Virus record (IMG/VR): IMGVR_UViG_3300042508_000428
Strand: one strand, 5' to 3'
DNA length: 64,000 nucleotides
Origin: a virus
Within the stretch, counting starts at the first letter, position 1; each line of letters begins with the position of its first letter. Under the pieces are notes generated by a model. It was not told the origin of the DNA and searched no databases. It saw nothing but the letters and a program-made list of their open reading frames with translations. The translations under genes and the position numbers were made by a program. Below are positions 41,427 through 59,528 of this stretch, one piece after another.

Positions 41427-41618
41427 ATGGAAATAACTGTTATTATAAAATTACCAGACGGCACTACAAAAACAGTAGAACTTGTAGGAGCAAATATAAA
41501 TACAACTTGGAACAGTACCGTACCATATAATCCATCTTTAACACCAGATGCTCCAATCGTAGGACATCTATCATTGCAAGGTATAATAAAAGATAGTTTA
41601 TTGGTTGGTTCAGTTTAA
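41427..41618 (+). CDS. Small hypothetical protein
   Basis: 63 aa, GGAG SD. Confidence 0.55.
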   Translation: MEITVIIKLPDGTTKTVELVGANINTTWNSTVPYNPSLTPDAPIVGHLSLQGIIKDSLLVGSV

Positions 41619-41628
41619 TAGAGGAACA

Positions 41629-41976
41629 ATGCTACAACTAATTTATTTTATTCTCGTTTCTTACGGTTTAACCCAAATACTTTGTTATGGTAGTATATTA
41701 AATCCAATAAGACCAACAAAAGGTAAACTTGGAGAACTATTCAAGTGTCCTATGTGTATGGGATTTTGGGTAGGAATGTTCCTATGTGGCATTTCGCCAT
41801 ATACAGAACTATTTAGTTTTGGACAGACATTTATTAATTTTATCCTGTTGGGGTGCTTAAGTTCAGGAACAAGCTACATACTGAACATGGGAGTAAGCGA
41901 TGACGGCTTTAATTTTAAAATCAAATCAGGGAGTCAACCTCTGGACAAACAAGTGGATGAAAAGACCACCAACTAA
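41629..41976 (+). CDS. Small membrane protein with CPMC motif (DUF1360-like)
   Basis: Three hydrophobic segments; ELFKCPMCMGFWVG; GAGG SD supports ATG 41629. Confidence 0.55.
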   Translation: MLQLIYFILVSYGLTQILCYGSILNPIRPTKGKLGELFKCPMCMGFWVGMFLCGISPYTELFSFGQTFINFILLGCLSSGTSYILNMGVSDDGFNFKIKSGSQPLDKQVDEKTTN

Positions 41977-46625: not shown

Positions 46626-48455
46626 ATGGCAAGTATAGTCGAAAGATTAACAGAAAATATTGTTGAAAGAAATCTCCTTCGTGAAGGCGCTGCCCTCTCA
46701 AAGAAATGGGAAAGAACAGGTCTTCTAGAAGGAATCGATAGTGAGATGACAAAGACAACCATGTCTCGTCTTCTCGAAAATCAAGCAAAGGAACTACTCC
46801 GCGAAGCTTCCACAATGTCCGCAGGTGACGTTGAAGGTTTCGCAGCAGTTGCATTCCCAATTGTTAGACGCGTATTCGGTGGTCTAATTGCAAATGAACT
46901 CGTTGCAGTTCAACCAATGAGCCTCCCAAGCGGTCTAATCTTCTTCCTTGATTTTACCTATAGCAATGACACAGGAAACAAAACATTCGCTGGTGCAGTC
47001 GGTGGCCAATCTATTTACGGCGGTAACGTTGTAGCTAGCCAAATCACTGGTGGTGTTAGCTTAACTGGTGTTGATGCAAGTGGCGTACAAAACCTAGAAA
47101 AGAGCTTCTACTCTTTAAATAACGGTTTCTCAAGCGTAACTGGCTCAAGAGTGCTTAATCATTCTTGGAATTATGGCAACGCTGGTAAGGCTGGTGCATC
47201 TTCTACGGTTGTTGTTTACCAAACTTCCAGCTGGACAGACGTTGGTCTATCAACTGCTACAGGTAGTTCATTAACTGGCTCAACAGATGCAGCGTTCGTC
47301 GCATACGATCCAGATGTTCTTGCAGACACTTCTGCTTTAACATACCAAAAATTAAGACTATTCTTTGATTTGGGAACTTGGAATCAACTAGATAGAAATA
47401 ATCTAGTAGCAATCAACATTACTGGTTCAACAATTTCTGGTTCATTGGTTAGAAGACTAACTAAATTGGGTCCAGTAAGCCAATCTTTAGATGTAGTTGT
47501 TAAAACAGATGCTGGTGCTCCAATTTCAGAAGTTGGTGTTGCCCCATCTATTGCATCAACAACTTTTGCAATTAGGGATACATTAACAACTGGTAATTCT
47601 ATAGGTTCTGTTCTTACCGATCTATATGGTCTAGAAGGCGCTGGATCTGGTTCAACATTGAATGGTCAGGATATTCCTGGGGCTAACTTTACAATTCCAG
47701 AGATTGACATCAAAGTTGATAGCATCGCTGTAACAGCTCAAACCAAGAAACTCAAGGCCAAGTGGTCACCAGAATTAGGTCAAGACCTAAATGCTTACCA
47801 TAATCTTGACGCCGAAGTTGAGTTAACAAGCATCCTCTCCGAGCACGTTGCTCTTGAAATCGATCAAGAAATCCTCAACGATCTCGTTAAGGGTGCAACA
47901 GCTGGTACTAAGTACTGGAGCCGTAGACCAGGTAAGTTTGTCAACCGTGACACAGGTGCAAGCATCACATCAGTTGGTGCCCCACCAGACTTCACAGGTA
48001 ATGTCAGCATGTGGTATGAAACACTCATTGAAACAATCAATGACGTTTCTGCTCAAATCCACAGAAAGACAAGACGTGGTGGTGCAAACTTCCTCGTAAC
48101 TTCACCAGAAGTTGCTAACCTCCTAGAGTTCACCTCTGGTTTCCGCGCTGATGTCAGCATGGAAGACCTAAAGGGCGGTTCAGTTGGCGCAGTCAAGGCT
48201 GGTAGCCTCAGCAAGAAGTTTGATCTTTATGTTGATCCATATTTCCCACGCAACCTAATCCTAGTTGGTCGTAGAGGCAAGGCATTCCTCGAAAGCGGTT
48301 ATGTCTACGCTCCATACGTCCCACTAATGATTACACCAACAATCTTCGGTACAGAAGACTTTGTACCAAGAAAGGGTCTAATGACTCGCTACGCCAAGAA
48401 GATGGTTCGTCCAGACATGTATGGCCTAGTAGTTTGCCAAGACCTAATTGGTTAA
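46626..48455 (+). CDS. gp23: Major capsid protein (T4 gp23-like)
   Basis: AFPIVRRVFGGLIANELVAVQPMSLPSGLIFFLDF, IPEIDIKVDSIAVTAQTKKLKAKWS, EIDQEIL, GYVYAPYVPL, GLMTRYA. Confidence 0.96.
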   Translation: MASIVERLTENIVERNLLREGAALSKKWERTGLLEGIDSEMTKTTMSRLLENQAKELLREASTMSAGDVEGFAAVAFPIVRRVFGGLIANELVAVQPMSLPSGLIFFLDFTYSNDTGNKTFAGAVGGQSIYGGNVVASQITGGVSLTGVDASGVQNLEKSFYSLNNGFSSVTGSRVLNHSWNYGNAGKAGASSTVVVYQTSSWTDVGLSTATGSSLTGSTDAAFVAYDPDVLADTSALTYQKLRLFFDLGTWNQLDRNNLVAINITGSTISGSLVRRLTKLGPVSQSLDVVVKTDAGAPISEVGVAPSIASTTFAIRDTLTTGNSIGSVLTDLYGLEGAGSGSTLNGQDIPGANFTIPEIDIKVDSIAVTAQTKKLKAKWSPELGQDLNAYHNLDAEVELTSILSEHVALEIDQEILNDLVKGATAGTKYWSRRPGKFVNRDTGASITSVGAPPDFTGNVSMWYETLIETINDVSAQIHRKTRRGGANFLVTSPEVANLLEFTSGFRADVSMEDLKGGSVGAVKAGSLSKKFDLYVDPYFPRNLILVGRRGKAFLESGYVYAPYVPLMITPTIFGTEDFVPRKGLMTRYAKKMVRPDMYGLVVCQDLIG

Positions 48456-48478
48456 TCAACTAAGGGTTAATTAAGCAG

Positions 48479-48510
48479 AACCCCTGTCAGGGAAACTTGA
48501 CAGGGGTTTT
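48479..48510 (+). terminator. Rho-independent terminator after capsid gene
   Basis: AACCCCTGTCAGG-GAAA-CTTGACAGGGGTTTT (one G.U pair, GNRA loop, U tail). Confidence 0.9.
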
Positions 48511-48523
48511 GTGTTTCTGATAA

Positions 48524-48531
48524 ACTATTTA
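48524..48531 (+). promoter_or_regulatory. ACTATTTA motif heading the envelope cassette
   Basis: Between terminator and AGGAG SD, 23 nt upstream of ATG 48547. Confidence 0.6.
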
Positions 48532-48546
48532 TCAAAAGGAGAAACT

Positions 48547-50418
48547 ATGAAAAAACTTTTATTATCTTTATTATTGTTGACTGCATGTGGCGACGATTTA
48601 GGTTGGGAACACAAAGAAACAAAACACGATTGTGCTGATGCAGTTGTTGGAGACAGCGGTGTTTGTAATTTATGTCAAGACGTAACGGAGACAAAAGATG
48701 AGCAATCTGGAACAGAAGAAGTTGTTAGCGATGTTGCTGACAGTACCCAAAGTGACGTTCTCGCTGACAGTGGGAGCGATGACGCTGACGTTTCTGTCCC
48801 TGATGGCGTTACAGGAACGGACACAGAAGATACGCAAGATGCACAAGATGTACCAGAAGATGTAACTCAGGACGTTGCTCCACCACCAGAATGTGTTACG
48901 GCGACCGATTGTGTCGTTATAGCTTTGCCTTGTGTGGCACCAGATTGCCAAGAAGGTAAGTGTGTTAAAGTTCCATTTGATACACCATGTTCCGATAATA
49001 ATGAATGTACGGCAGGCGATCAATGCCAACTTGGTGTATGTGTTGCTGGTATTCAAATTAATTGTGACGATCTAGAATCTTGCACATTAGATTCTTGCGA
49101 GGCAGATAAAGGTTGCGTACATTTGCCAGTTGATGCAACTTGTGTCGATGGAGATGGTTGCACCGCAGAAGATATTTGCAAAGATGGTAAATGTGTAGGC
49201 GGTAAACCATTTAATTGCGATGATGGAAATGTTTGCACAGATGATACTTGCGAGACATTTGGTAAGGATGAAATTCATGTTTGTAATCATTTGCCAAATC
49301 AAGCGACTTGTACAGACAACGATGTTTGCACATTAGATGATGCCTGTGAGGGTGTTGTTTGCAAATCAAAAGCAGTTGCTATTTGTGATGATAATAATGT
49401 TTGTACAGACAATACTTGCGATCCAGCAAATGGTTGTGTTTATTTAGCAAATGTAGCAACTTGTACCGACAATGACGCTTGTACTGTGAATGATTTATGC
49501 TCCGAAACTGTTTGTAAATCTGGATTAGTATTAAGTTGTGCAGATAATAATGAATGTACAACTGATCTATGCAAGTCAGAATCAGGTTGTTATTTTGAGA
49601 ATAACACAAATGTTTGTAGCGATAATAATGTTTGTAGCATTGACGATAAGTGTGAGGCAGGATCATGTATTGCTGGCGCTCAAAAGGTTTGTGATGACGC
49701 TAATCTTTGCACCGTTGATTCATGTGATGCTGTAAATGGATGTGCTTCCGTAAATGCTGTTGATGGTACAAAATGTGCTGAAGGCGTCTGTAAAGACGGC
49801 TCTTGTGCTTGTGTAAGCGGGTTTGGCTGTGCTTTGCCTGCCTTCGTATATACTGGCGATGTGACTGCTGGTATGTTAGGAGGAATGGGTGGTGGTGTCG
49901 GTCCAAAGATGGGTTGCCCTGCTACTGATGTTTTAATCGGTTTAGGTTTTGATTTCAGTAATGGTCAAAAAACAGCCACTAGAACAACTGCCGTTTGTGG
50001 TAAAGTTACAATTGAACAAAATGGAACTGTCATAACAACTCAAACAACTACACAAAAATCAGGTGGTTCTGGATGTTTTGGTTGGGATCCTTCAACTCCA
50101 ACTCCGCTTGTAGTTTGCAAGAGTGGTTGGGCTGTTGTTGGTATTAAAGGCAAAAAACCCGGAGGCACTCTATTCAATTCTGTAAAAGTTGTTTGTGGTA
50201 AACTCGATGTTGCTGGCAAACCAACTGGCGAGACAGAAGTTTTAAATGTAGAAGGAACACTAGGCTCAGGTGTTGATCAAGAAGTATTATGCCCAGAAAA
50301 AACAATTGCTCGTTATTTTGAGACAAGAGCTGGTTGTGGGCAAGATGCTTTGACTATGTATTGTGCTACTGCAACACCAGATTGTACTGGTCAAGAATTA
50401 ATTTGTAAGGATTTATAA
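48547..50418 (+). CDS. Lipoprotein with Cys-rich tandem repeats and C-terminal threefold (beta-prism-like) domain
   Basis: True start ATG 48547 (AGGAG SD); MKKLLLSLLLLTA-C lipobox; acidic linker; ten CxDxNxCTxDxC-type repeats. Confidence 0.8.
   Translation: MKKLLLSLLLLTACGDDLGWEHKETKHDCADAVVGDSGVCNLCQDVTETKDEQSGTEEVVSDVADSTQSDVLADSGSDDADVSVPDGVTGTDTEDTQDAQDVPEDVTQDVAPPPECVTATDCVVIALPCVAPDCQEGKCVKVPFDTPCSDNNECTAGDQCQLGVCVAGIQINCDDLESCTLDSCEADKGCVHLPVDATCVDGDGCTAEDICKDGKCVGGKPFNCDDGNVCTDDTCETFGKDEIHVCNHLPNQATCTDNDVCTLDDACEGVVCKSKAVAICDDNNVCTDNTCDPANGCVYLANVATCTDNDACTVNDLCSETVCKSGLVLSCADNNECTTDLCKSESGCYFENNTNVCSDNNVCSIDDKCEAGSCIAGAQKVCDDANLCTVDSCDAVNGCASVNAVDGTKCAEGVCKDGSCACVSGFGCALPAFVYTGDVTAGMLGGMGGGVGPKMGCPATDVLIGLGFDFSNGQKTATRTTAVCGKVTIEQNGTVITTQTTTQKSGGSGCFGWDPSTPTPLVVCKSGWAVVGIKGKKPGGTLFNSVKVVCGKLDVAGKPTGETEVLNVEGTLGSGVDQEVLCPEKTIARYFETRAGCGQDALTMYCATATPDCTGQELICKDL
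48988..49810 (+). repeat. Ten ~25-aa Cys-rich repeats in alternating A/B pairs
   Basis: CSDNNECTAGDQC, CDDLESCTLDSC, CVDGDGCTAEDIC, CDDGNVCTDDTC, CTDNDVCTLDDAC, CDDNNVCTDNTC, CTDNDACTVNDLC, CADNNECTTDLC, CSDNNVCSIDDKC, CDDANLCTVDSC. Confidence 0.9.
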
Positions 50419-50420
50419 CA

Positions 50421-51371
50421 ATGAAAAAACTGCTCTTAACTCTCTTTTTATTACTATTATCAAATACTGCCAATGCTTGGGAAGCAACAGTTGGGCTTGG
50501 TGGCTATGGTAGGATTTTTGACGAAAAGGATCAGTTAGGAGCAGTTTCAAAACATGAAAGTTTAATTCCAGAATTTTCAGGTGGGTTGGCATTGAATGGA
50601 TCATTTCTGTTTGATGCCAGCCCTTCTTTTAGAATTGGTCCAGATTTAATGCTTGGATACGGCTGGTTGTCTGCCCAAGTAAATGAAAGGTTTGGAACAA
50701 GTTTGCAAAATCAAACTATTATTACCTCTCTAAATGTTCAGTATCAAATTTATGATTTTAGAGTTTCTGTAAAGCCCGGCTTTGTTGTCAATACTCTAAC
50801 CGCTGGATACACAGATAAAATTGACTCTGACACAGGTTTCTCTTCGTCCTTAAGATTTTCAACGGATCTATTTTCATCAGCAAGATTTTTTTTTGAGCCA
50901 CAGGTTTTATTCTCTCCCTCTGTAGAATCAAAGAATTCTTTTGTTCCATCGTATAGTTTAACTTTGGGCTTTGAAAAAATCTTTTCGCCAAAGAAGGTTC
51001 CTGCTCCCGTTGTGGAGAAACCAGTAGAAGTAAAGCCAGCAGTGAAAACACCAGAACCAGTTGTTGAACCTATTAAACTTCCAGAACCAGCAACCCCAGT
51101 TAAGCAACCAGATCCACCAGTTAAAGTTGAGGAAACTAAAGTAGAACCTCAATTAAATGTTGAGTCAAAAGGATACTTGGAAAACATATTAAAGGTTCAT
51201 AAAGTATTAAAATCATCCATTAAAATAATTTATAGTGAAGATAAGATTCTTAAAGAAAAGGCAGAAAAATTAGCAACTTGGTTTGCAGAGCGTGGAGTAA
51301 GTAAAGAAGATATTGTTCTAACAAACACGCTTGAAACAAAAGGCATAAGAATAGAAATTCTCAAAAAGTAG
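50421..51371 (+). CDS. Secreted outer-membrane beta-barrel-like protein with Pro-rich linker and short OmpA-like C-terminus
   Basis: Signal peptide MKKLLLTLFLLLLSNTANA; alternating hydrophobic strands ending YSLTLGFEKIF; P/V/E/K linker; KEKAEKLATWFAERGVSKEDI resembles OmpA C-domain helix. Confidence 0.6.
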   Translation: MKKLLLTLFLLLLSNTANAWEATVGLGGYGRIFDEKDQLGAVSKHESLIPEFSGGLALNGSFLFDASPSFRIGPDLMLGYGWLSAQVNERFGTSLQNQTIITSLNVQYQIYDFRVSVKPGFVVNTLTAGYTDKIDSDTGFSSSLRFSTDLFSSARFFFEPQVLFSPSVESKNSFVPSYSLTLGFEKIFSPKKVPAPVVEKPVEVKPAVKTPEPVVEPIKLPEPATPVKQPDPPVKVEETKVEPQLNVESKGYLENILKVHKVLKSSIKIIYSEDKILKEKAEKLATWFAERGVSKEDIVLTNTLETKGIRIEILKK

Positions 51372-51377
51372 GATAAT

Positions 51378-53441
51378 ATGTTAAAGAAAATAATACCGCT
51401 TTTATTTTTAGTCTCCTGTTCGCAAGAGACAGCAGCGCCCACTATTCAAGGGGGCATTGGCTTTGACATACAGCAAGACACCACCATCATTGTTAAAGAT
51501 ATAGAACAACCAGATGTTATTGAATCAGACACAGAACCAGTGGAAGATACACAGGTAGAAGACGCGGAAAATGACCTAGAAAATACGGAAATAATAGAAG
51601 TAGAAGAAGATGCGGTCGAAGATGTTGAGCCTCCTGTAGAGGACACAGAAGAGCCTGAATGTATTGATGAAGACGGCGATGGGTTTGGTGAAAACTGCAA
51701 CTTTGGTATTGATTGCGATGACTTCAATCCAAACTTTGGAGATGTATGCCCAGATTGCTCAAAGGCTGGAACTATAGGCTGTACTTGTTCTGGCAAGCCT
51801 TTATCGTGTTATGAATACGATCCAGCGACAGTAGGAAAAGGCTTGTGTAAAAAAGGTCAGCAATTATGTACAGACGGCTTCTGGAAAGCATGTAGCGGGA
51901 GCATTGGACCAGCACCAGAACTCTGCGACTTCAAAGACAACGACTGCGATGGCGAAACAGACGAGGGCGTAAAATCAACTTGTGGTAATTGTGATCTAAC
52001 TTGTAATCAACAAACTATTGGTTCTGGTGGTAAAGGATGGAATCTAAATAGTGAAAATGCTACAGGGCTTGGTTTGGATCCACAAGGTAATGTAACTCTT
52101 GATTTATCAGCGATCTCGCTCAACTTGAAGTTTATTTGGATCGCAAACTCACCAAATAACACTGTATCCAAAGTTGATTGTAAGACCATTACAGAAGTTG
52201 GTAGATTCCAAGTTTGCTCAGACCCTTCAAGAACTTCTGTTGACCTTGAGGGAAATGTTTGGGTTGCTTGCCGTGGCGATGGTGCCGTAACAAAAATTAT
52301 CGCAGATAAAACAAAATGTGCTGATAAAAACGGCAATGGTATTATTGAAACATCGACAAGCTCACAGCCAATAGGCAATGATGAGTGTATCAAGTTTATT
52401 GTAAACCCCGGCAAAGGATCTTATGCTAGAGGTGCCGCTGTAGATAAAGAAAATCATGTATGGATAGGTTATTGGAACCAAAAAACAATGGTTCGTCTTA
52501 ATGCCAACACTGGCGCAACGATGACGGAAATTCCATTGGGTGTATCGCCCTATGGTTTAGTAATTGACCAAAAGGGAATGATCTGGGCGCAAGGTGAGTT
52601 CAACACGCTGGTCATGATAGACCCTTTGACACAAGTCGTTACAAAGAATAATACCTTACCACAACTAAAGTTCCCTGCTAGTGCTTACGGGCTTAATGTA
52701 GATAAGTATGGTCGTTTGTGGGTTGCTTCGGGCAACAAAGCATCTGTTTATGATCCCAAGACATTACAATGGAAGGTCGTTAACATGAACTGGGGTGGTG
52801 GTCGTGGTGTTGCTACATCAAATGATGGTTATACTTATGTCGCCGTAGATGGTTCAGGCGGGGCAGTAAAAATAAATGGCAATGTTGATCCACCACAAGT
52901 AGAAGGTTTTATCAAGGGAGCAGGAAGCCCTGTCGGTGCTGCTATTGACTATGATGGTTTTGTTTGGGTCGTAAATCAAGGTGGTTCAAGCGCAACAAAG
53001 ATGGATCCAAATACAATGTCTGCGGTAGGAACTGTTTCAGTTGGTTCATCTCCATACACATACTCAGACATGACTGGTTATACTCTAAACTACTTTACTG
53101 CGCCAAAAGGTCAATACAGCACAGTATTCTTTGGAAGTGTATCATCAAACCCAATAACAACTTCCACAATGAAACAAGTGTGGCAGTCAATTTCAGCAGA
53201 AGCGGATCTTCCAGAAGGGACAGCATTGAGGTTTAGATTAAGAGCGGGCAATACAAAAGTAGAACTAGAAAATGCTAAATGGTCTGAGCCTATTGATTTT
53301 CCGCCAGAAGTATTTCCTTATGATCTTACCAAGGCAAATATTATCGGCAACATGCTACAAGTTGAAATACAGTTGACAACAAAAGATAAAAAGGTTGCTC
53401 CAACTCTAAAATCTATAACGGCGAAGTCCAAACTGATTTAA
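51378..53441 (+). CDS. Lipoprotein with Asp/Cys metal-binding-type repeats and Vgb/NHL-like beta-propeller
   Basis: MLKKIIPLLFLVS-C lipobox; CIDEDGDGFG...DCDD and ELCDFKDNDCDGETDEG; propeller blades (VDLEGNVWV, VDKENHVWI, IDQKGMIW, VDKYGRLWV, IDYDGFVWV); SPYTYSDMTG. Confidence 0.75.
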   Translation: MLKKIIPLLFLVSCSQETAAPTIQGGIGFDIQQDTTIIVKDIEQPDVIESDTEPVEDTQVEDAENDLENTEIIEVEEDAVEDVEPPVEDTEEPECIDEDGDGFGENCNFGIDCDDFNPNFGDVCPDCSKAGTIGCTCSGKPLSCYEYDPATVGKGLCKKGQQLCTDGFWKACSGSIGPAPELCDFKDNDCDGETDEGVKSTCGNCDLTCNQQTIGSGGKGWNLNSENATGLGLDPQGNVTLDLSAISLNLKFIWIANSPNNTVSKVDCKTITEVGRFQVCSDPSRTSVDLEGNVWVACRGDGAVTKIIADKTKCADKNGNGIIETSTSSQPIGNDECIKFIVNPGKGSYARGAAVDKENHVWIGYWNQKTMVRLNANTGATMTEIPLGVSPYGLVIDQKGMIWAQGEFNTLVMIDPLTQVVTKNNTLPQLKFPASAYGLNVDKYGRLWVASGNKASVYDPKTLQWKVVNMNWGGGRGVATSNDGYTYVAVDGSGGAVKINGNVDPPQVEGFIKGAGSPVGAAIDYDGFVWVVNQGGSSATKMDPNTMSAVGTVSVGSSPYTYSDMTGYTLNYFTAPKGQYSTVFFGSVSSNPITTSTMKQVWQSISAEADLPEGTALRFRLRAGNTKVELENAKWSEPIDFPPEVFPYDLTKANIIGNMLQVEIQLTTKDKKVAPTLKSITAKSKLI

Positions 53442-53444
53442 CAA

Positions 53445-53452
53445 ACTATTTA
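53445..53452 (+). promoter_or_regulatory. ACTATTTA motif
   Basis: Starts only 13 nt upstream of ATG 53458, no SD between. Confidence 0.5.
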
Positions 53453-53457
53453 TAGTA

Positions 53458-53973
53458 ATGTTAGTTATTTTTAAGCTGAGTTTCTGGATCAGCTTATTGT
53501 TCTCTTGTAGACCAGTAGATCCAGTAATAAGCAACAAAATAATTGATTCAGTTGAGTTTCAGGAATCGAGAGGTGTAGCTTCTGTAAGAGATAATGGTTA
53601 TTGTGTTGGGTTAATGCAGATAGATAGAAGATATTCTCCAATACAAAAACCTTATTTAAAAATTCCTTATCTCAATCGAATCATTGGCGTGCGAATGCTT
53701 CGATATTGGCATAAGCAGGCGAGAGGTGATATGAATCATGCTCTTGCGGCCTATAATTGTGGATATGCTGGATTAAATACCACTTGCGGTTCTGGATATG
53801 CCAGCGCCGTTTTAAATAGAAATCTTGTTCGTAAGAGAAAGAATCCCGAAAGTTGTTTTATTATGGGAAATATTATTAATTATTATTTCGACAATAAACA
53901 CTATTTAGTTAAGTGGAGAAATAAATTATGGCATTACCAACAATCACCCCGGCATCAACGACAACAACGGTAA
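53458..53973 (+). CDS. Lytic transglycosylase (SLT domain) with N-terminal hydrophobic segment/lipobox; candidate endolysin
   Basis: SLT motifs FQESRG (catalytic Glu), GLMQ, ALAAYNCG; N-terminus MLVIFKLSFWISLLFS-C. Confidence 0.8.
   Translation: MLVIFKLSFWISLLFSCRPVDPVISNKIIDSVEFQESRGVASVRDNGYCVGLMQIDRRYSPIQKPYLKIPYLNRIIGVRMLRYWHKQARGDMNHALAAYNCGYAGLNTTCGSGYASAVLNRNLVRKRKNPESCFIMGNIINYYFDNKHYLVKWRNKLWHYQQSPRHQRQQR
53900..53907 (+). promoter_or_regulatory. ACTATTTA motif heading neck genes
   Basis: Inside 3' end of SLT gene, 28 nt upstream of ATG 53928. Confidence 0.55.
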
Positions 53974-55178
53974 GATTATCATCTTCCGCAACAGCAACAG
54001 AAGCTTCAACCGCTTCAAACTATCCGTTCAGCATATACACAACAGATCAATACTTCTTGACTGGAGCGGCGGAGCAAGTTGCCTTTGTTTATAAAATGTT
54101 AGGCGGCGATGTATTAGATATTGAATTAAGAAATCAAAATGTATTTTCTGCTTACCAAGCCGCTTGTATGGAATATTCCTACCTTGTAAACATTCATCAA
54201 GCAAAGAACTCTCTACCAAATATGCTTGGTGCAACAACAGGAACTTTTGATCATAAGGGTTCTCTTTTGTCTGGTCCAACCGGCTCAAACGTTGCATTAA
54301 AGTTTCCAAGATTCCAAGCACAACTACCAAGAAATGTTGCCAAAGGTTTTGGAGCCTCTGTTGGGGTTGGCGGTGATGTTCCTGTTTATTCAGCATCAAT
54401 TAATTTAACCTCAAGTGTTCAAGATTATGATTTACAAGCAGCAGCAGACGAAGCATTAACTGCTGCTGGAAAATCAAATTTAGTTGGCAAAAGAGCAGTT
54501 GTAACAAAAGTTTATTATGTAACTCCAAGAGCTATGTGGAGATTCTTTGCTTATTACGGTGGTATTAATGTCATTGGTAATATGACAACCTATGGTATGT
54601 ATACCGATGATTCTACGTTTGAAGTCGTTCCCACTTGGCAGAATAAGCTTCAAGCTATGATGTATGAGGATTCAATCTATACAAGAACTTCTCATCACTC
54701 TTATGAGATTGTGGACAACAAATTAAGACTATATCCAGTGCCAGCAGTTACAGACGTAACAAAGATGTATTTTAGATTTTACATCGTTCCCGACGCTTGG
54801 GAAGCAGGAACTTCAAATGATGGTATTGGTGGCATCAATAACCTAAACACTCTACCTTTCGAGAATATACCCTATACTAACATCAATAGCATAGGAAAGC
54901 AATGGATCAGAAGATATGCATTAGCTTTGTCAAAAGAAATGCTTGGTCAAATTCGTGGTAAGTTTGGAGGAAATGTTCCATCTCCAGGAGTTACAATCAC
55001 TCTTAATGCAACCGCTTTATTAGGTGAAGCCGAGAAAGAAAAGACTGCATTAAGAGATGAATTGGTTAAAGTTCTTGATGAATTAACATATACCAAGATT
55101 ACAGAAACACAAGCCAGCATAGCCAAGAATGCTGCGGAAACAATGAAATACGCACCACTACCAATCTTTGTAGGATAA
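53928..55178 (+). CDS. Neck/head-tail adaptor protein (gp13-like)
   Basis: YKMLGGDVLDIEL, WIRRYALALSKEMLGQIRGKF...GVTITLNATALLGEAEKE motifs; position before gp14/gp15-like genes. Confidence 0.8.
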   Translation: MALPTITPASTTTTVRLSSSATATEASTASNYPFSIYTTDQYFLTGAAEQVAFVYKMLGGDVLDIELRNQNVFSAYQAACMEYSYLVNIHQAKNSLPNMLGATTGTFDHKGSLLSGPTGSNVALKFPRFQAQLPRNVAKGFGASVGVGGDVPVYSASINLTSSVQDYDLQAAADEALTAAGKSNLVGKRAVVTKVYYVTPRAMWRFFAYYGGINVIGNMTTYGMYTDDSTFEVVPTWQNKLQAMMYEDSIYTRTSHHSYEIVDNKLRLYPVPAVTDVTKMYFRFYIVPDAWEAGTSNDGIGGINNLNTLPFENIPYTNINSIGKQWIRRYALALSKEMLGQIRGKFGGNVPSPGVTITLNATALLGEAEKEKTALRDELVKVLDELTYTKITETQASIAKNAAETMKYAPLPIFVG

Positions 55179-56588: not shown

Positions 56589-59528
56589 ATGGCAGTAAAA
56601 GCTTTCAAGTTTGCATCCCCAGGCATCTTTTTAAATGAAATAGATCAATCACAAGTTGCAGAATCTCCTGCATCAGTTGGACCAATCATCATTGGTAGAG
56701 CAGAAAGAGGGCCAGCAATGCGTCCTGTTACAGTTGCTTCTTACGATGAGTTTGTACAAACGTTTGGTGAACCGGTTGCTGGTGGAGATTCTTCTGGAGA
56801 TGTTTGGAGAAGTGGTATTCCTTCTGGTCCAACATATGGTGGTTATGCTGCTCAAGCTTGGTTGGCAAACAACCCAACAGTTACATTCGTAAGATTATTA
56901 GGAACACAAGCTGATAATCCAGAATCTACAAGTTTAAATAATCAAGGGAAAGCAGGATGGACAGTTGGAAGCCCAACGCCTTCTGCCCCTAAAGGTGCTT
57001 ATGGATTATTTGTTTTTCCTTCATCATCTGAATCTTCTGTTATAATGGCTGGTTGTTTAGCTGCTGTTTGGTATTGCTCTGGTACTGTTCCAGTGCTCTC
57101 TGGTACTTTGTATGGTACGTCATCTCCAAAACAAAATAATGGTATTATGATTAATAGTACTAGTGGTCTTTTTTCTGTATATATGAGTGGAACTTCTGGT
57201 CAAGGAGTTGATACAAATACTGTTAAGTATTTCGATTTTAGCCCAACAAGTGATAAATTTGTTAGAAAAGTGTTTAACACAAATCCACAAAATGCAAATA
57301 CAGATTCTACCTCTGGTCCTTCAAATACAAGTACTTCTTTTTATGGATATTGGTTAGGAGAAACTTTTGAAAATGAATTACCATTTATGGTTATATCGGG
57401 GTCTTCTTCTTATCCGCTAAACGGGGTTAATGGCGTATTAACAAATTCTGTTGGTATAATTTTACCAATTAAATTTGAAAATAGATTAGACAAACAAGCA
57501 AATGAAAGCAATGCAGCTAGAACAGGCTGGATCATTGGTCAGGGATCTTCTGGAGTTGTAGCTGACTTTTCAGCCAAAAATCAGAAGAAATTATTTAGAT
57601 TTATTTCTCTTGATTATGGTGATTGGACAAGAAACAATTTAAAAGTAACAATCAATAATATTATTGCTCCACAAAATGATGCGCAAAAATATGGAACATT
57701 TGATGTTGAAGTTCGAAGAGTGTATGACACTGATGCAAATAAAATTATTGTAGAAAGTTTTGTCGGTTGTACACTAGATCCTGATTCTCCTAGTTATATC
57801 GCAAGAAAAATTGGAGATACATATTACAGTTGGGATGAATCTAATAGAATATTATCTGAAGTTGGGGAGAATCCAAACAATTCTCAATTTATCAGAGTCG
57901 AAATGGCTCCTGACTATGTATCAAATGCAGGAGATATTCCGTTCGGCGTATTAGGTCCGCTAAAATATGACATTGCTACTTTCGCTTCTCAGGCGAACGT
58001 TACAAATGGTGTTGGATTTGTTTACGGAACTTCAAGTTGTTTCGCACAAACTTCATCAGTCAATTTAACTGCCAGTGGTGGTCCATCAGATCAAGCATTT
58101 AGATTTAATTTTCCATCATTAAGAACAAGAGTGTCTTCATCAGAAGATTCTTTAACAACTTACAAATTAGCTGATTGGGGAGCTGCCACCACAAGAGCTG
58201 CTTCTTCTATTCTTTATAATGAAGGCGTTAATGATATTTTAAGATTACCATTGACTGGGTCTGGATTTTATACTGGTATGGAAGGTGGTGGCTTATCTTA
58301 TGCTTGGGCATTTAGCTTAGACGATGTTCGCGTAACCGGTTCACAGCTTACAGGAAGCACTTGGCAAAATAAATATTTTATTTGGACTGCTGGGTCAAAA
58401 ACAAATTCTGGTATAAATGGTTCTTATACTGCTGTTAGTGGTACATTTGCACAACTTTTAAACACCGAAGGTGTAAATTCTTTCACAACCACTTTCCAAG
58501 GTGGTACTGATGGATTTAACGTTATGGAAGGTGAGCCACTAAGAAATTCTGCAATGACAGTCGGATCTTCAACAGATCAAAACAGCTATATCTACAATAC
58601 ATACAGAAGAGCAATTGATACGGTAAGAGATCCAGAATTTGTTCAAGGCAATCTCTTTACCATTCCAGGATTAGCTTATGAGCCATTAACTCTATATGCT
58701 GCACAAATGGCAGAAAGTAGAGCAGATGTAATGGCAATTATTGATGCGTCTGGAGTAGGAGCCAATTTAGCTTCTTATGTAACCAAACAAGAAAAAAGTG
58801 ACAACGCACAAGGAACAGCAACTCCAAGAGTTGCTCCTGTTAGTGATGTTGTTACAAGAATGAAAGCTAGAAATTTAAATACAAGTTATGCTGCAACATA
58901 TTATCCTTGGGTTCAAATTTCTGATTCTGTAACGGGTAAGATTGTTCCAATTCCATCATCAGTTGTTGCTCTCGGCGCAATGTCCTACAATGATAGTGTT
59001 CAAGCCCCTTGGTTTGCTCCAGCAGGATTTAATCGTGGTGGTTTATCAACCGGCAATGCAGGCGTAAACGTTGTTAACATTGTTAAGAAATTAACATCTG
59101 CAGAAAGAGATCAACTCTATCCAGTCAACGTTAATCCAATCGCATCATTCCCAAATGAAGGAATTGTAATCTTTGGACAGAAGACACTACAGGCAACTCC
59201 ATCTGCTCTGGACAGAATTAATGTTCGTAGATTAATGCTCTACATCAAGAGAGGAATTAACATAATCTCAACAAGAGTTCTATTTGAACCAAATGTTCAA
59301 GATACTTGGAACAACTTTAAAGATCAAGCAGAACCATTCCTTGCAGATGTAAAAGCAAGATTCGGTTTGACGGATTATAGATTAATTCTAGATGAGACAA
59401 CAACAACTCCAGATTTAATCGATCAAAATATCTTGTATGCAAAGATTTTCTTGAAACCAACAAAAGCAATCGAATTCATTGCAGTTGACTTCTTTATTAC
59501 AAAATCAGGAGCTTCATTCAATATTTAA
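56589..59528 (+). CDS. gp18: Tail sheath protein (gp18-like)
   Basis: FASPGIFLNEID, GRAERGP, ATYYPWV, PWFAPAGFNRG, SALDRINVRRL, FEPN, AIEFIAVDF. Confidence 0.96.
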   Translation: MAVKAFKFASPGIFLNEIDQSQVAESPASVGPIIIGRAERGPAMRPVTVASYDEFVQTFGEPVAGGDSSGDVWRSGIPSGPTYGGYAAQAWLANNPTVTFVRLLGTQADNPESTSLNNQGKAGWTVGSPTPSAPKGAYGLFVFPSSSESSVIMAGCLAAVWYCSGTVPVLSGTLYGTSSPKQNNGIMINSTSGLFSVYMSGTSGQGVDTNTVKYFDFSPTSDKFVRKVFNTNPQNANTDSTSGPSNTSTSFYGYWLGETFENELPFMVISGSSSYPLNGVNGVLTNSVGIILPIKFENRLDKQANESNAARTGWIIGQGSSGVVADFSAKNQKKLFRFISLDYGDWTRNNLKVTINNIIAPQNDAQKYGTFDVEVRRVYDTDANKIIVESFVGCTLDPDSPSYIARKIGDTYYSWDESNRILSEVGENPNNSQFIRVEMAPDYVSNAGDIPFGVLGPLKYDIATFASQANVTNGVGFVYGTSSCFAQTSSVNLTASGGPSDQAFRFNFPSLRTRVSSSEDSLTTYKLADWGAATTRAASSILYNEGVNDILRLPLTGSGFYTGMEGGGLSYAWAFSLDDVRVTGSQLTGSTWQNKYFIWTAGSKTNSGINGSYTAVSGTFAQLLNTEGVNSFTTTFQGGTDGFNVMEGEPLRNSAMTVGSSTDQNSYIYNTYRRAIDTVRDPEFVQGNLFTIPGLAYEPLTLYAAQMAESRADVMAIIDASGVGANLASYVTKQEKSDNAQGTATPRVAPVSDVVTRMKARNLNTSYAATYYPWVQISDSVTGKIVPIPSSVVALGAMSYNDSVQAPWFAPAGFNRGGLSTGNAGVNVVNIVKKLTSAERDQLYPVNVNPIASFPNEGIVIFGQKTLQATPSALDRINVRRLMLYIKRGINIISTRVLFEPNVQDTWNNFKDQAEPFLADVKARFGLTDYRLILDETTTTPDLIDQNILYAKIFLKPTKAIEFIAVDFFITKSGASFNI

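Follow-up and report, generated by a model that had tools for sequence, protein, structure and literature searches.

Why does the late block of an uncultured T4-type lake phage carry, between the genes for its capsid and its neck, four genes whose products all begin with an export signal, and did these genes arrive together? The locus lies in a stretch of 64,000 nucleotides (the window) that is part of a 74.9-kb IMG/VR virus record, IMGVR_UViG_3300042508_000428 (CheckV completeness 33%), in a late block of prohead genes, a gp23-type capsid gene, a neck/adaptor-like gene and a sheath gene. The four genes are called P1 to P4 below, and P1-P2-P3 the trio. An initial annotation of the window had read them as one host-derived cassette. 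Its account of four consecutive export-signal genes behind the capsid terminator, with Cys codons at 48586, 51417 and 53506, was borne out, as were the domain identities that it had proposed (Cys-repeat lipoprotein, barrel, Cys/propeller lipoprotein and transglycosylase), for which Pfam and AlphaFold gave the same result. The single fixed cassette did not survive: comparison with relatives indicates that the locus is composite, with P4 resident in the nearest relatives, P1-P2-P3 a separate mobile insertion, and P3 often found alone. P3 itself, judged by its alignment, is a full-length member of a Myxococcota family of Cys-knot/propeller surface lipoproteins. None of the four had a match among 50,697 deposited phage genomes, and no description of such a module was found in the literature searched. 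The open reading frames (ORFs) between capsid and neck, all on the plus strand, and the elements that bound them are as follows.

46626..48455, plus strand: major capsid protein gene, gp23 type, left flank of the variable site (Pfam Gp23, E = 2e-69; phrog_138)
48475..48512, plus strand: intrinsic-terminator-like hairpin (17-pair stem) and T run behind the capsid gene (terminator scan)
48521..48534, plus strand: AAACTATTTAT, late-promoter-like motif (core ACTATTTA, 48524-48531), left one of the two direct-repeat copies around the trio (motif enrichment, site before late genes, junction alignment)
48547..50418, plus strand: P1, predicted lipoprotein of 623 amino acids (Cys14; CGDDLGW motif; Pfam PF00526, E = 4e-19)
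50421..51371, plus strand: P2, predicted outer-membrane barrel protein with a signal peptide (AlphaFold model, Foldseek)
51378..53441, plus strand: P3, predicted lipoprotein of 687 amino acids (Cys14; Pfam SGL and Reg_prop, MopE below threshold)
53442..53455, plus strand: second copy of AAACTATTTAT (core 53445-53452, 5 nucleotides upstream of the P4 ATG), bounding the trio insertion on the right (motif scan, junction alignment)
53458..53973, plus strand: P4, lytic transglycosylase of the soluble lytic transglycosylase (SLT) family (Cys17 in LFS-C, four further conserved Cys; Pfam SLT)
53900..53907, plus strand: ACTATTTA motif within the 3' end of P4, 20 nucleotides before the neck gene
53928..55178, plus strand: neck/head-tail adaptor-like gene, right flank (phrog_211, E = 5.5e-9)

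Whether the four genes form a unit was judged from their distribution. Seventy-two capsid relatives (53-61% identity) contained both capsid and neck, and none of them carries P1-P4; the two flanking genes are adjacent in 42 of the 72 and elsewhere separated by 0.4-2.2 kb, mostly with signal-less genes between. The closest relatives, found via P4, share 87-88% identity in the neck and 70-78% in the capsid, and in L209-L213, L215 and L216 P4 is resident between capsid and neck. The order in L209 and L211-L213 is capsid, 84 bp, P4 and an overlapping neck gene, and L215 and L216 have an extra 1.3 kb between capsid and P4; P1-P3 are missing from all six. The capsid 3' end and terminator are near-identical in the window and L212 (the hairpin 3' of the capsid is also present in L211 and L212), and the match extends through the terminator to AAACTAYTTAT, from which L212 continues to the P4 ATG and the window to P1. 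Because this 11-mer is repeated just before P4 in the window, the trio must have entered at the promoter motif and left a direct repeat.

The same trio recurs in a second setting, far from capsid and neck: L178 and L189 carry P1 (70% identity), P2 (45%) and P3 (48%) in the same order and with 3-7 nucleotide spacing, followed by an endolysin-like gene with a PG_binding_1 domain and a weakly Rz-like membrane protein. The downstream gene of L178 encodes 312 amino acids, matches endolysin PHROGs, and is itself followed by a transmembrane coiled-coil protein (the weak Rz-like call, E = 0.004) and a signal-peptide protein. Most often P3 occurs by itself. Other arrangements were capsid-P2'-P3 (L130), capsid-P3-neck (L134 and L177), P3-neck (L083 and L131) and P3-other-P4 (L140); the P3-P4 junction was also seen in L132, and further phage contigs carry P3 at unrelated sites with 41-49% identity. 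Two CheckV-complete relatives lack P3, which marks it as accessory; together with the absence of P1-P4 from all 72 capsid-neck relatives, this agrees with the initial annotation, which had read the block as an insertion.

The capsid-neck gap was also considered as a general hotspot for envelope proteins and rejected as such, as the inserts of the 30 relatives that have one (L003-L082) are signal-less, except for one lipoprotein in L080 (314 amino acids, VLS-C). Separately, these inserts include a family of about 140-230 amino acids starting MGTKRVGLAR..ALIENLKR and a second set of small, very basic proteins starting MGKKRR. In the close relatives, proteins starting MREILLEWRKY... or MNSRQLKRIILEEIRN... 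lie between P3 and P4 or neck (L140:374-2182; L141:340-753). In L133 (396-803) a 135-amino-acid Cys-rich ORF with CxxC pairs separates the capsid 3' end (96% identity) from P3 (68%); it is possibly a zinc-finger or HNH-type homing endonuclease, and a mobile nuclease may help to shuffle the site. Near the distant P3 genes a small exported family was noted, with a signal peptide followed by K.KFYDFSDQ[LM]IDG (L181:5106-5339, L183:5220-5453 and L186:5938-6180, all on the minus strand, and L190:11943-12185), in company with other lipoproteins and a 117-amino-acid membrane protein directly upstream of P3.

Export signals were read by rule, with [LVI][ASTVI][GAS]-C as the lipobox pattern. P1 begins MKK...LTA-C and P3 MLKK...LVS-C, with Cys codons at 48586 and 51417, respectively; in P4 a Lys is followed by a hydrophobic stretch and LFS-C (Cys codon at 53506), and P2 begins MKKLLL...ANA followed by WEA, a signal peptide of Sec type. 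The n-region, h-region and lipobox of a lipoprotein are all present in P1 and P3, while the fit of P4 is partial, its lipobox varying in homologues. Conservation was similar: by a simple pattern the lipobox occurs in most of about 120 P3 relatives, bacterial copies among them, the leader and the A-W-E site are kept in 31 of 31 aligned P2 relatives, and the complete P1 relatives examined retain lipobox-CGDDLGW. P4 relatives keep the Cys, preceded by S, T or V, which makes this lipobox less canonical. Among about 49 non-overlapping ORFs of the window, one other on the plus strand has such an N-terminus (Fisher p = 2e-5). The Cys content of P1 (64 residues, 10%), P3 (22) and P4 (four conserved outside the signal) would fit folding outside the cytoplasm. 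These features support the view that P1-P4 are all exported envelope proteins.

P3 is the member whose origin can be followed furthest. It comprises an acidic disordered tether (residues 15-94), a Ca-type Cys knot (95-215) carrying DxDxDG and CDxxDNDCDG motifs, a propeller of YVTN/NHL type (about 220-565) and a C-terminal beta-sandwich (575-687). The top structural match of its AlphaFold model (predicted local distance difference test, pLDDT, 74) was 1L0Q, an archaeal S-layer YVTN propeller with a PKD domain, and Lp49, YncE and the surface lipoprotein BtuG also matched. Its relatives number hundreds, and the named ones are proteins of Myxococcales or of 'Deltaproteobacteria' metagenome-assembled genomes (MAGs). 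At E <= 1e-30 the family was present in 74 of 301 sampled Myxococcota genomes, often in several copies per genome. The best bacterial copies (G181, G161, G226, G301 and G001) share 64-73% identity, over the full length in the first four (from residues 24-107 to 686) and over 219-686 in G001, in which the copy ends at the contig edge. About 150 columns of the family alignment are invariant, including a PYTYSDMTGY...APKG segment. The family is often annotated automatically as 'streptogramin lyase' (COG4257-like); a virginiamycin B lyase was rejected for P3, which scored 21.3 bits against PF24684 (cut-off 50 bits) and whose family has no His among the invariant columns. As observations in their own right, residues 559-578 (window 53052-53111), PYTYSDMTGYTLNYFTAPKG, are invariant or nearly so across phage and bacterial members, lie at the propeller-sandwich junction, have the lowest confidence of the folded part (pLDDT < 50 over 565-574) and may represent a processing site or a loop of functional importance; and L085/G002 (CAZLMW010000005.1; 65% GC), titled 'uncultured Enterobacteriaceae bacterium', groups with the phylum of the Myxococcota MAG G001, so that its NCBI label looks wrong.

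In a tree of 15 phage-context and 19 genome-context P3 sequences, the clade that includes the window copy branches within a ladder-like series of Myxococcota sequences, and phage copies occupy at least four positions. Phage monophyly cost 480 log-likelihood units and was rejected (approximately unbiased test, p = 3e-6), which argues for repeated exchange of P3 between phages and bacteria, and this in turn makes a Myxococcota host plausible, at roughly even odds. No independent sign of the host was obtained, and none that points to Bdellovibrionota. The G+C content at third codon positions (GC3) is 0.21-0.32 in P1-P4, similar to that of the neighbouring phage genes, whereas the bacterial homologues have 0.84-0.87. 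Since codon composition is fully phage-like, the P3 transfers would be old and the protein under strong constraint; the comparison with the flanks, which the initial annotation had put forward as a check, thus gave no signature of recent capture from a high-GC host. Nor does the raised regional GC point to foreign origin, as the first and second codon positions account for it and the GC content of the capsid gene is just as high.

The initial reading of a host-derived module, with best hits beyond phages, therefore holds for P3 and in part for P1, and not for P2 and P4. No relatives of P4 were found in the 301 Myxococcota genomes, none of P2 in 401 in a strict first look, and neither the P2 family nor the C-terminal domain of P1 in the genomes with the closest P3 copies. 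Cys-repeat proteins occur near Myxococcota P3 homologues in five of eight loci and have only the repeats in common with P1. These homologues are often near Cys-repeat lipoproteins and DUF4349 pairs; one adjoins a TonB-dependent receptor (L198) and others flank an OprB porin (L201). A conserved divergent cluster adjoining two of them (L197:2518-5889 and L201:4013-6186, both on the minus strand) consists of two DUF4349 proteins and a Cys-repeat lipoprotein of about 800-1000 amino acids (11-13% Cys), with an aldehyde dehydrogenase downstream.

P1 has an acidic tether (about residues 15-125), some ten Cys repeats of Dicty_CTDC type (148-400) and a globular C-terminal domain (about 430-623), and ends ...LICKDL, with neither a membrane tag nor MYXO-CTERM. 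PF00526 scored 68.5 bits (cut-off 27 bits), and the tandem repeats of the Dictyostelium CTDC type are present as ten CxDxxxC[TS] units spaced by about 25 residues. The C-terminal domain (about 190 amino acids) had no Pfam family match; its homologues form two groups, one phage-like (64-99% identity) and one of DUF4215/MYXO-CTERM proteins (46-52%), and it was present in 3 of the 301 Myxococcota genomes. A VOMI/Jacalin beta-prism was considered for this head, with ESM Atlas scores of 0.82-0.88, below the 0.9 level; these weak leads were left unused.

P2 consists of an eight-strand barrel (residues 20-188), a Pro-rich disordered hinge (193-248) and a small alpha/beta C-terminal domain (247-316), with a mean pLDDT of 78 in the AlphaFold model and mostly above 90 in the barrel. 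The best Foldseek match was full-length E. coli OmpA, followed by OmpX, OmpW and Ail, and in BFVD the model matched phage proteins labelled OmpA-like or outer-membrane. P2 had no Pfam hit at all, its profile found nothing among PDB sequences, and its family is small (21 clusters among 1.84 billion representatives). On its model P2 is thus OmpA-like in architecture, and it is not filed as an OmpA family member because PF00691 (OmpA_C, peptidoglycan-binding) had no match at E <= 1 in the phage record and the C-terminal domain is only about 70 amino acids long.

P4 matched PF01464 (E = 7.4e-8, 32.4 bits, cut-off 21.3 bits) and has the FQESRG (catalytic ES), GLMQ and AYNCG motifs of SLT family 1, which its homologues mostly keep, with the variants GVMQ, YKES and SYNCG. 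P4 lacks a Shine-Dalgarno sequence, and its last 46 nucleotides are shared with the neck gene. The spacing from promoter-like motif to ATG is 5 nucleotides in most homologues of P4, among them that of L214, which lies in a different genomic setting (7 nucleotides in L217; the start call in L215 is unclear), a geometry that suggests translation from a near-leaderless late transcript. Outside the capsid-neck site, P4 homologues were seen at L214:1400-2175 and L217:3868-4650, near a 71-amino-acid membrane protein and a lipoprotein of 66-71 amino acids with weak Rz-like/Cor-like PHROG hits (E about 1e-3), a neighbourhood that may be a small lysis cluster.

The core ACTATTTA is present in 14 copies in the window, relative to 5.9 expected (none of 100 shuffles reached 14), and 12 of the copies are on the plus, coding strand. 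It lies 15-37 nucleotides before the starts of three prohead-module ORFs, P1, the neck gene and the sheath gene (56589-59528), and 5 nucleotides before P4. From its position it is a reasonable candidate for the late promoter of this lineage. The copy at 48524, behind the 17-pair hairpin, is the motif with which the initial annotation had the block begin, and since the motif also precedes structural genes, the late expression proposed there is plausible.

The flanks place the phage among T4-type relatives, of which complete genomes are 185-190 kb. By capsid protein, the closest cultured phages (40-49% identity) are Flavobacterium phage immuto, which has PhoH at its capsid-neck junction, Microcystis phage Mel-JY01 and Rhodothermus phage RM378; the neck gene is kept in relatives at 46-88% identity. 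The sole other plus-strand ORF with a signal- or membrane-like N-terminus, at window 41605-41976 upstream of the prohead genes, encodes 123 amino acids with a single hydrophobic segment, is 85% identical in L212 and could be holin-type.

The best overall explanation, to which as a whole we would give somewhat less than an even chance, is that a resident exported enzyme has been joined by a mobile surface trio with a masking role. P4 would be the lineage's own exported, membrane-tethered transglycosylase, most likely acting as an endolysin, or as a similar wall-cutting enzyme, with Sec rather than a holin as its route to the periplasm. The trio would be a mobile three-gene operon that recombination at the late-promoter motif placed downstream of the capsid terminator and ahead of P4. 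Export via Sec would take its products out of the cytoplasm, P1 and P3 becoming lipid-modified and sorted to the outer membrane, P2 being inserted as a barrel, and the Cys-rich parts folding in the oxidising periplasm. Late in infection the cell would then bear two adhesin-like heads on long acidic tethers beside the P2 barrel anchor, the head of P1 being its compact C-terminal domain on the Cys-repeat stalk and that of P3 its propeller with the Ig-like domain. Because the invariant residues of the bacterial family are kept, P3 would perform for the phage the binding job of the host protein. The trio may thus be a late surface-display module for receptor masking or adhesion. The role that we favour, by analogy with T5 Llp, is that it masks a surface or outer-membrane component and so blocks adsorption of further phages, or of the phage's own progeny after lysis, to the infected cell or its debris; this we consider possible rather than probable.

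Several observations weigh against this account. Masking leans on analogy, on a propeller match that is generic (Foldseek E of about 1e-10 to many unrelated propellers) and on bacterial neighbourhoods in two of six cases. P3 often occurs without P1 and P2, so that the trio may not be one machine. In P4 homologues the lipobox is non-canonical, with T or V before the Cys, and relatives such as L177, L131 and L083 have no P4, so that it cannot be the endolysin of every member of the wider group. The genome is 33% assembled, and other lysis genes may lie outside the record. The GC3 of 0.2-0.3 in the phage lies extremely far from that of the bacterial homologues.

The strongest alternative, which is nevertheless unlikely, is that the trio is a lysis accessory: together with the exported wall-cutting enzyme it would break through the outer layers when infection ends, replacing or assisting spanins, perhaps through weakening of the outer membrane or of its attachment to the wall. 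It draws on the position of the trio directly upstream of a muralytic gene in two unrelated contexts (P4 in the window and the PG_binding_1 protein in L178), on the late motif that precedes the operon, on the absence of a visible spanin pair in the window and on the small membrane and signal-peptide proteins among which the distant P3 genes of L179 and L188 lie. However, P3 is without a muralytic neighbour in L177, L083, L131 and L134, and the two complete relatives that lack it imply that lysis does not need P3. With their large size and adhesin-like build the proteins resemble neither spanins nor disruptins, their homologues in bacteria are ordinary genes of the chromosome, and the spanin- and holin-like calls near P4 or P3 are weak.

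Slightly less likely again is a role in cell-cell adhesion or in a hijack of outer-membrane exchange, in which P1 and P2 would resemble an inverted TraA/TraB pair and the infected cell would stick to or fuse with its kin, so that new hosts would be close to the burst or would receive phage lipoproteins. TraA combines a signal peptide and a PA14 head with a stalk of Cys-rich repeats and MYXO-CTERM, and TraB has an OmpA-like domain; a resemblance of the TraA repeats to PF00526 was noted by the authors of that work (PMC3325183). P1 has PF00526 repeats and a head domain that recurs in MYXO-CTERM proteins, P2 starts 3 nucleotides after P1, and the ancestry of P3 points to Myxococcota. Family models nonetheless fail for both proteins and membership was rejected: P1 scored 15.2 bits against TIGR04201 (cut-off 25 bits; control genomes score equally) and had no PA14 match, and P2 had no match to PF00691, the model for an OmpA-like domain such as TraB has. 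P1 is also anchored by an N-terminal lipid and has no MYXO-CTERM, its head was found in 3 of 301 Myxococcota genomes and P2 relatives in none of 401, and P3, the commonest member, has no TraAB counterpart. A bolder version, which we regard as improbable, is that a family of large T4-type phages from aquatic habitats infects planktonic Myxococcota across a GC3 gap of about 0.55, repeatedly steals a surface lipoprotein and in some lineages builds a TraA/TraB-like contact device from a stalked head protein and a barrel, with which the dying cell would adhere to, or exchange outer membrane with, its kin to reach or precondition the next hosts; the phage would thereby manipulate social contact between bacteria.

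Comparably improbable is that these are auxiliary genes for nutrient capture, P3 being a surface lipoprotein that binds a ligand and P2 a small channel, which together boost uptake. In cyanophages, exported PstS has been proposed to aid phosphate uptake. One structural match of P3 is BtuG, a surface lipoprotein that binds B12; the TonB-dependent receptor and the OprB porin lie beside P3 homologues in two Myxococcota loci, and PhoH at the immuto capsid-neck junction suggests that this is a site for auxiliary genes. A late-promoter motif, on the other hand, is ill-suited to uptake whose benefit has to come ahead of assembly, the match to propellers is generic, an eight-strand barrel of OmpA type as a rule has no sizeable pore, and ligand-site residues could not be identified. 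That P1-P4 are ordinary proteins of the virion or cytoplasm, with hydrophobic N-termini that do not direct export, as their place inside the structural block and the promoter motif that they share with it might suggest, is very improbable in view of the n-h-c architecture and lipobox Cys conserved in most P3 and in all complete P1 and P2 homologues examined, the 10% Cys of P1, the outer-membrane type of the P2 barrel, and the absence of the genes from most relatives, complete genomes included.

On the favoured account of a resident P4 and a mobile surface trio, the late-promoter motif would serve as a recombination site at which extra genes join the structural operon, and large adhesin-like exported proteins would join the few kinds of envelope protein that lytic phages put on their hosts. 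P3 gives a concrete lead to a Myxococcota host for a large clade of T4-type phages, uncultured and of lake and marine origin, for which no such lead existed, and it draws attention to a highly conserved, uncharacterised surface-lipoprotein family in about a quarter of the sampled Myxococcota genomes. If the masking or adhesion role is true, this would be a novel means by which phages control adsorption or contact as infection ends.

Among known systems, the phage morons offer the closest parallel for the trio: lambda Lom is an eight-strand outer-membrane barrel and Bor a lipoprotein, and Cor and T5 Llp block a receptor. Like these, the trio consists of self-contained extra genes in the late or structural region that encode an outer-membrane barrel and lipoproteins for the host envelope. 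It differs as a three-gene operon in a virulent-type T4-like phage and in the far larger size of P1 and P3 (623 and 687 amino acids), with tethers, Cys-repeat stalks and a propeller; the trio has no sequence similarity to Lom, Bor, Cor or Llp. Spanins (Rz/Rz1), which pair a small outer-membrane lipoprotein with a coiled-coil protein of the inner membrane, are a poorer comparison for proteins of the length of P1 and P3, and P1-P4 have no spanin PHROG match. P1-P2 share with TraA/TraB the sequence of anchor, Cys-rich stalk and distal head followed by an OmpA-type partner gene, whereas the polarity of P1 is reversed, with an N-terminal lipid anchor in place of MYXO-CTERM. For P2, the OmpA-like barrels of Cellulophaga phage phi17:2, uncultured Myoviridae and Synechococcus phage S-CBWM1 are likewise predicted barrels or barrel-plus-domain proteins (Foldseek E = 1e-8 to 1e-10, BFVD), from which P2 differs in sequence (13-16% identity) and in its C-terminal alpha/beta module of about 70 amino acids. 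P4 resembles signal-anchor-release (SAR) or signal-peptide endolysins and lipoprotein transglycosylases of MltE/EmtA type in its small SLT fold and its ES motif behind an N-terminal export or anchor segment, and holin-independent export of endolysins is a known strategy (PMC7143992); its anchor is, however, lipobox-like and not a Gly/Ala-rich SAR helix, with a pre-Cys residue that varies in homologues. The fullest correspondence is that of P3 with the Myxococcota Cys-knot/propeller family, with which it has the lipobox, acidic linker, DxDxDG Cys knot, propeller, invariant segment and C-terminal sandwich all in common, while being phage-encoded, with phage codon usage and a short signal peptide of phage type.

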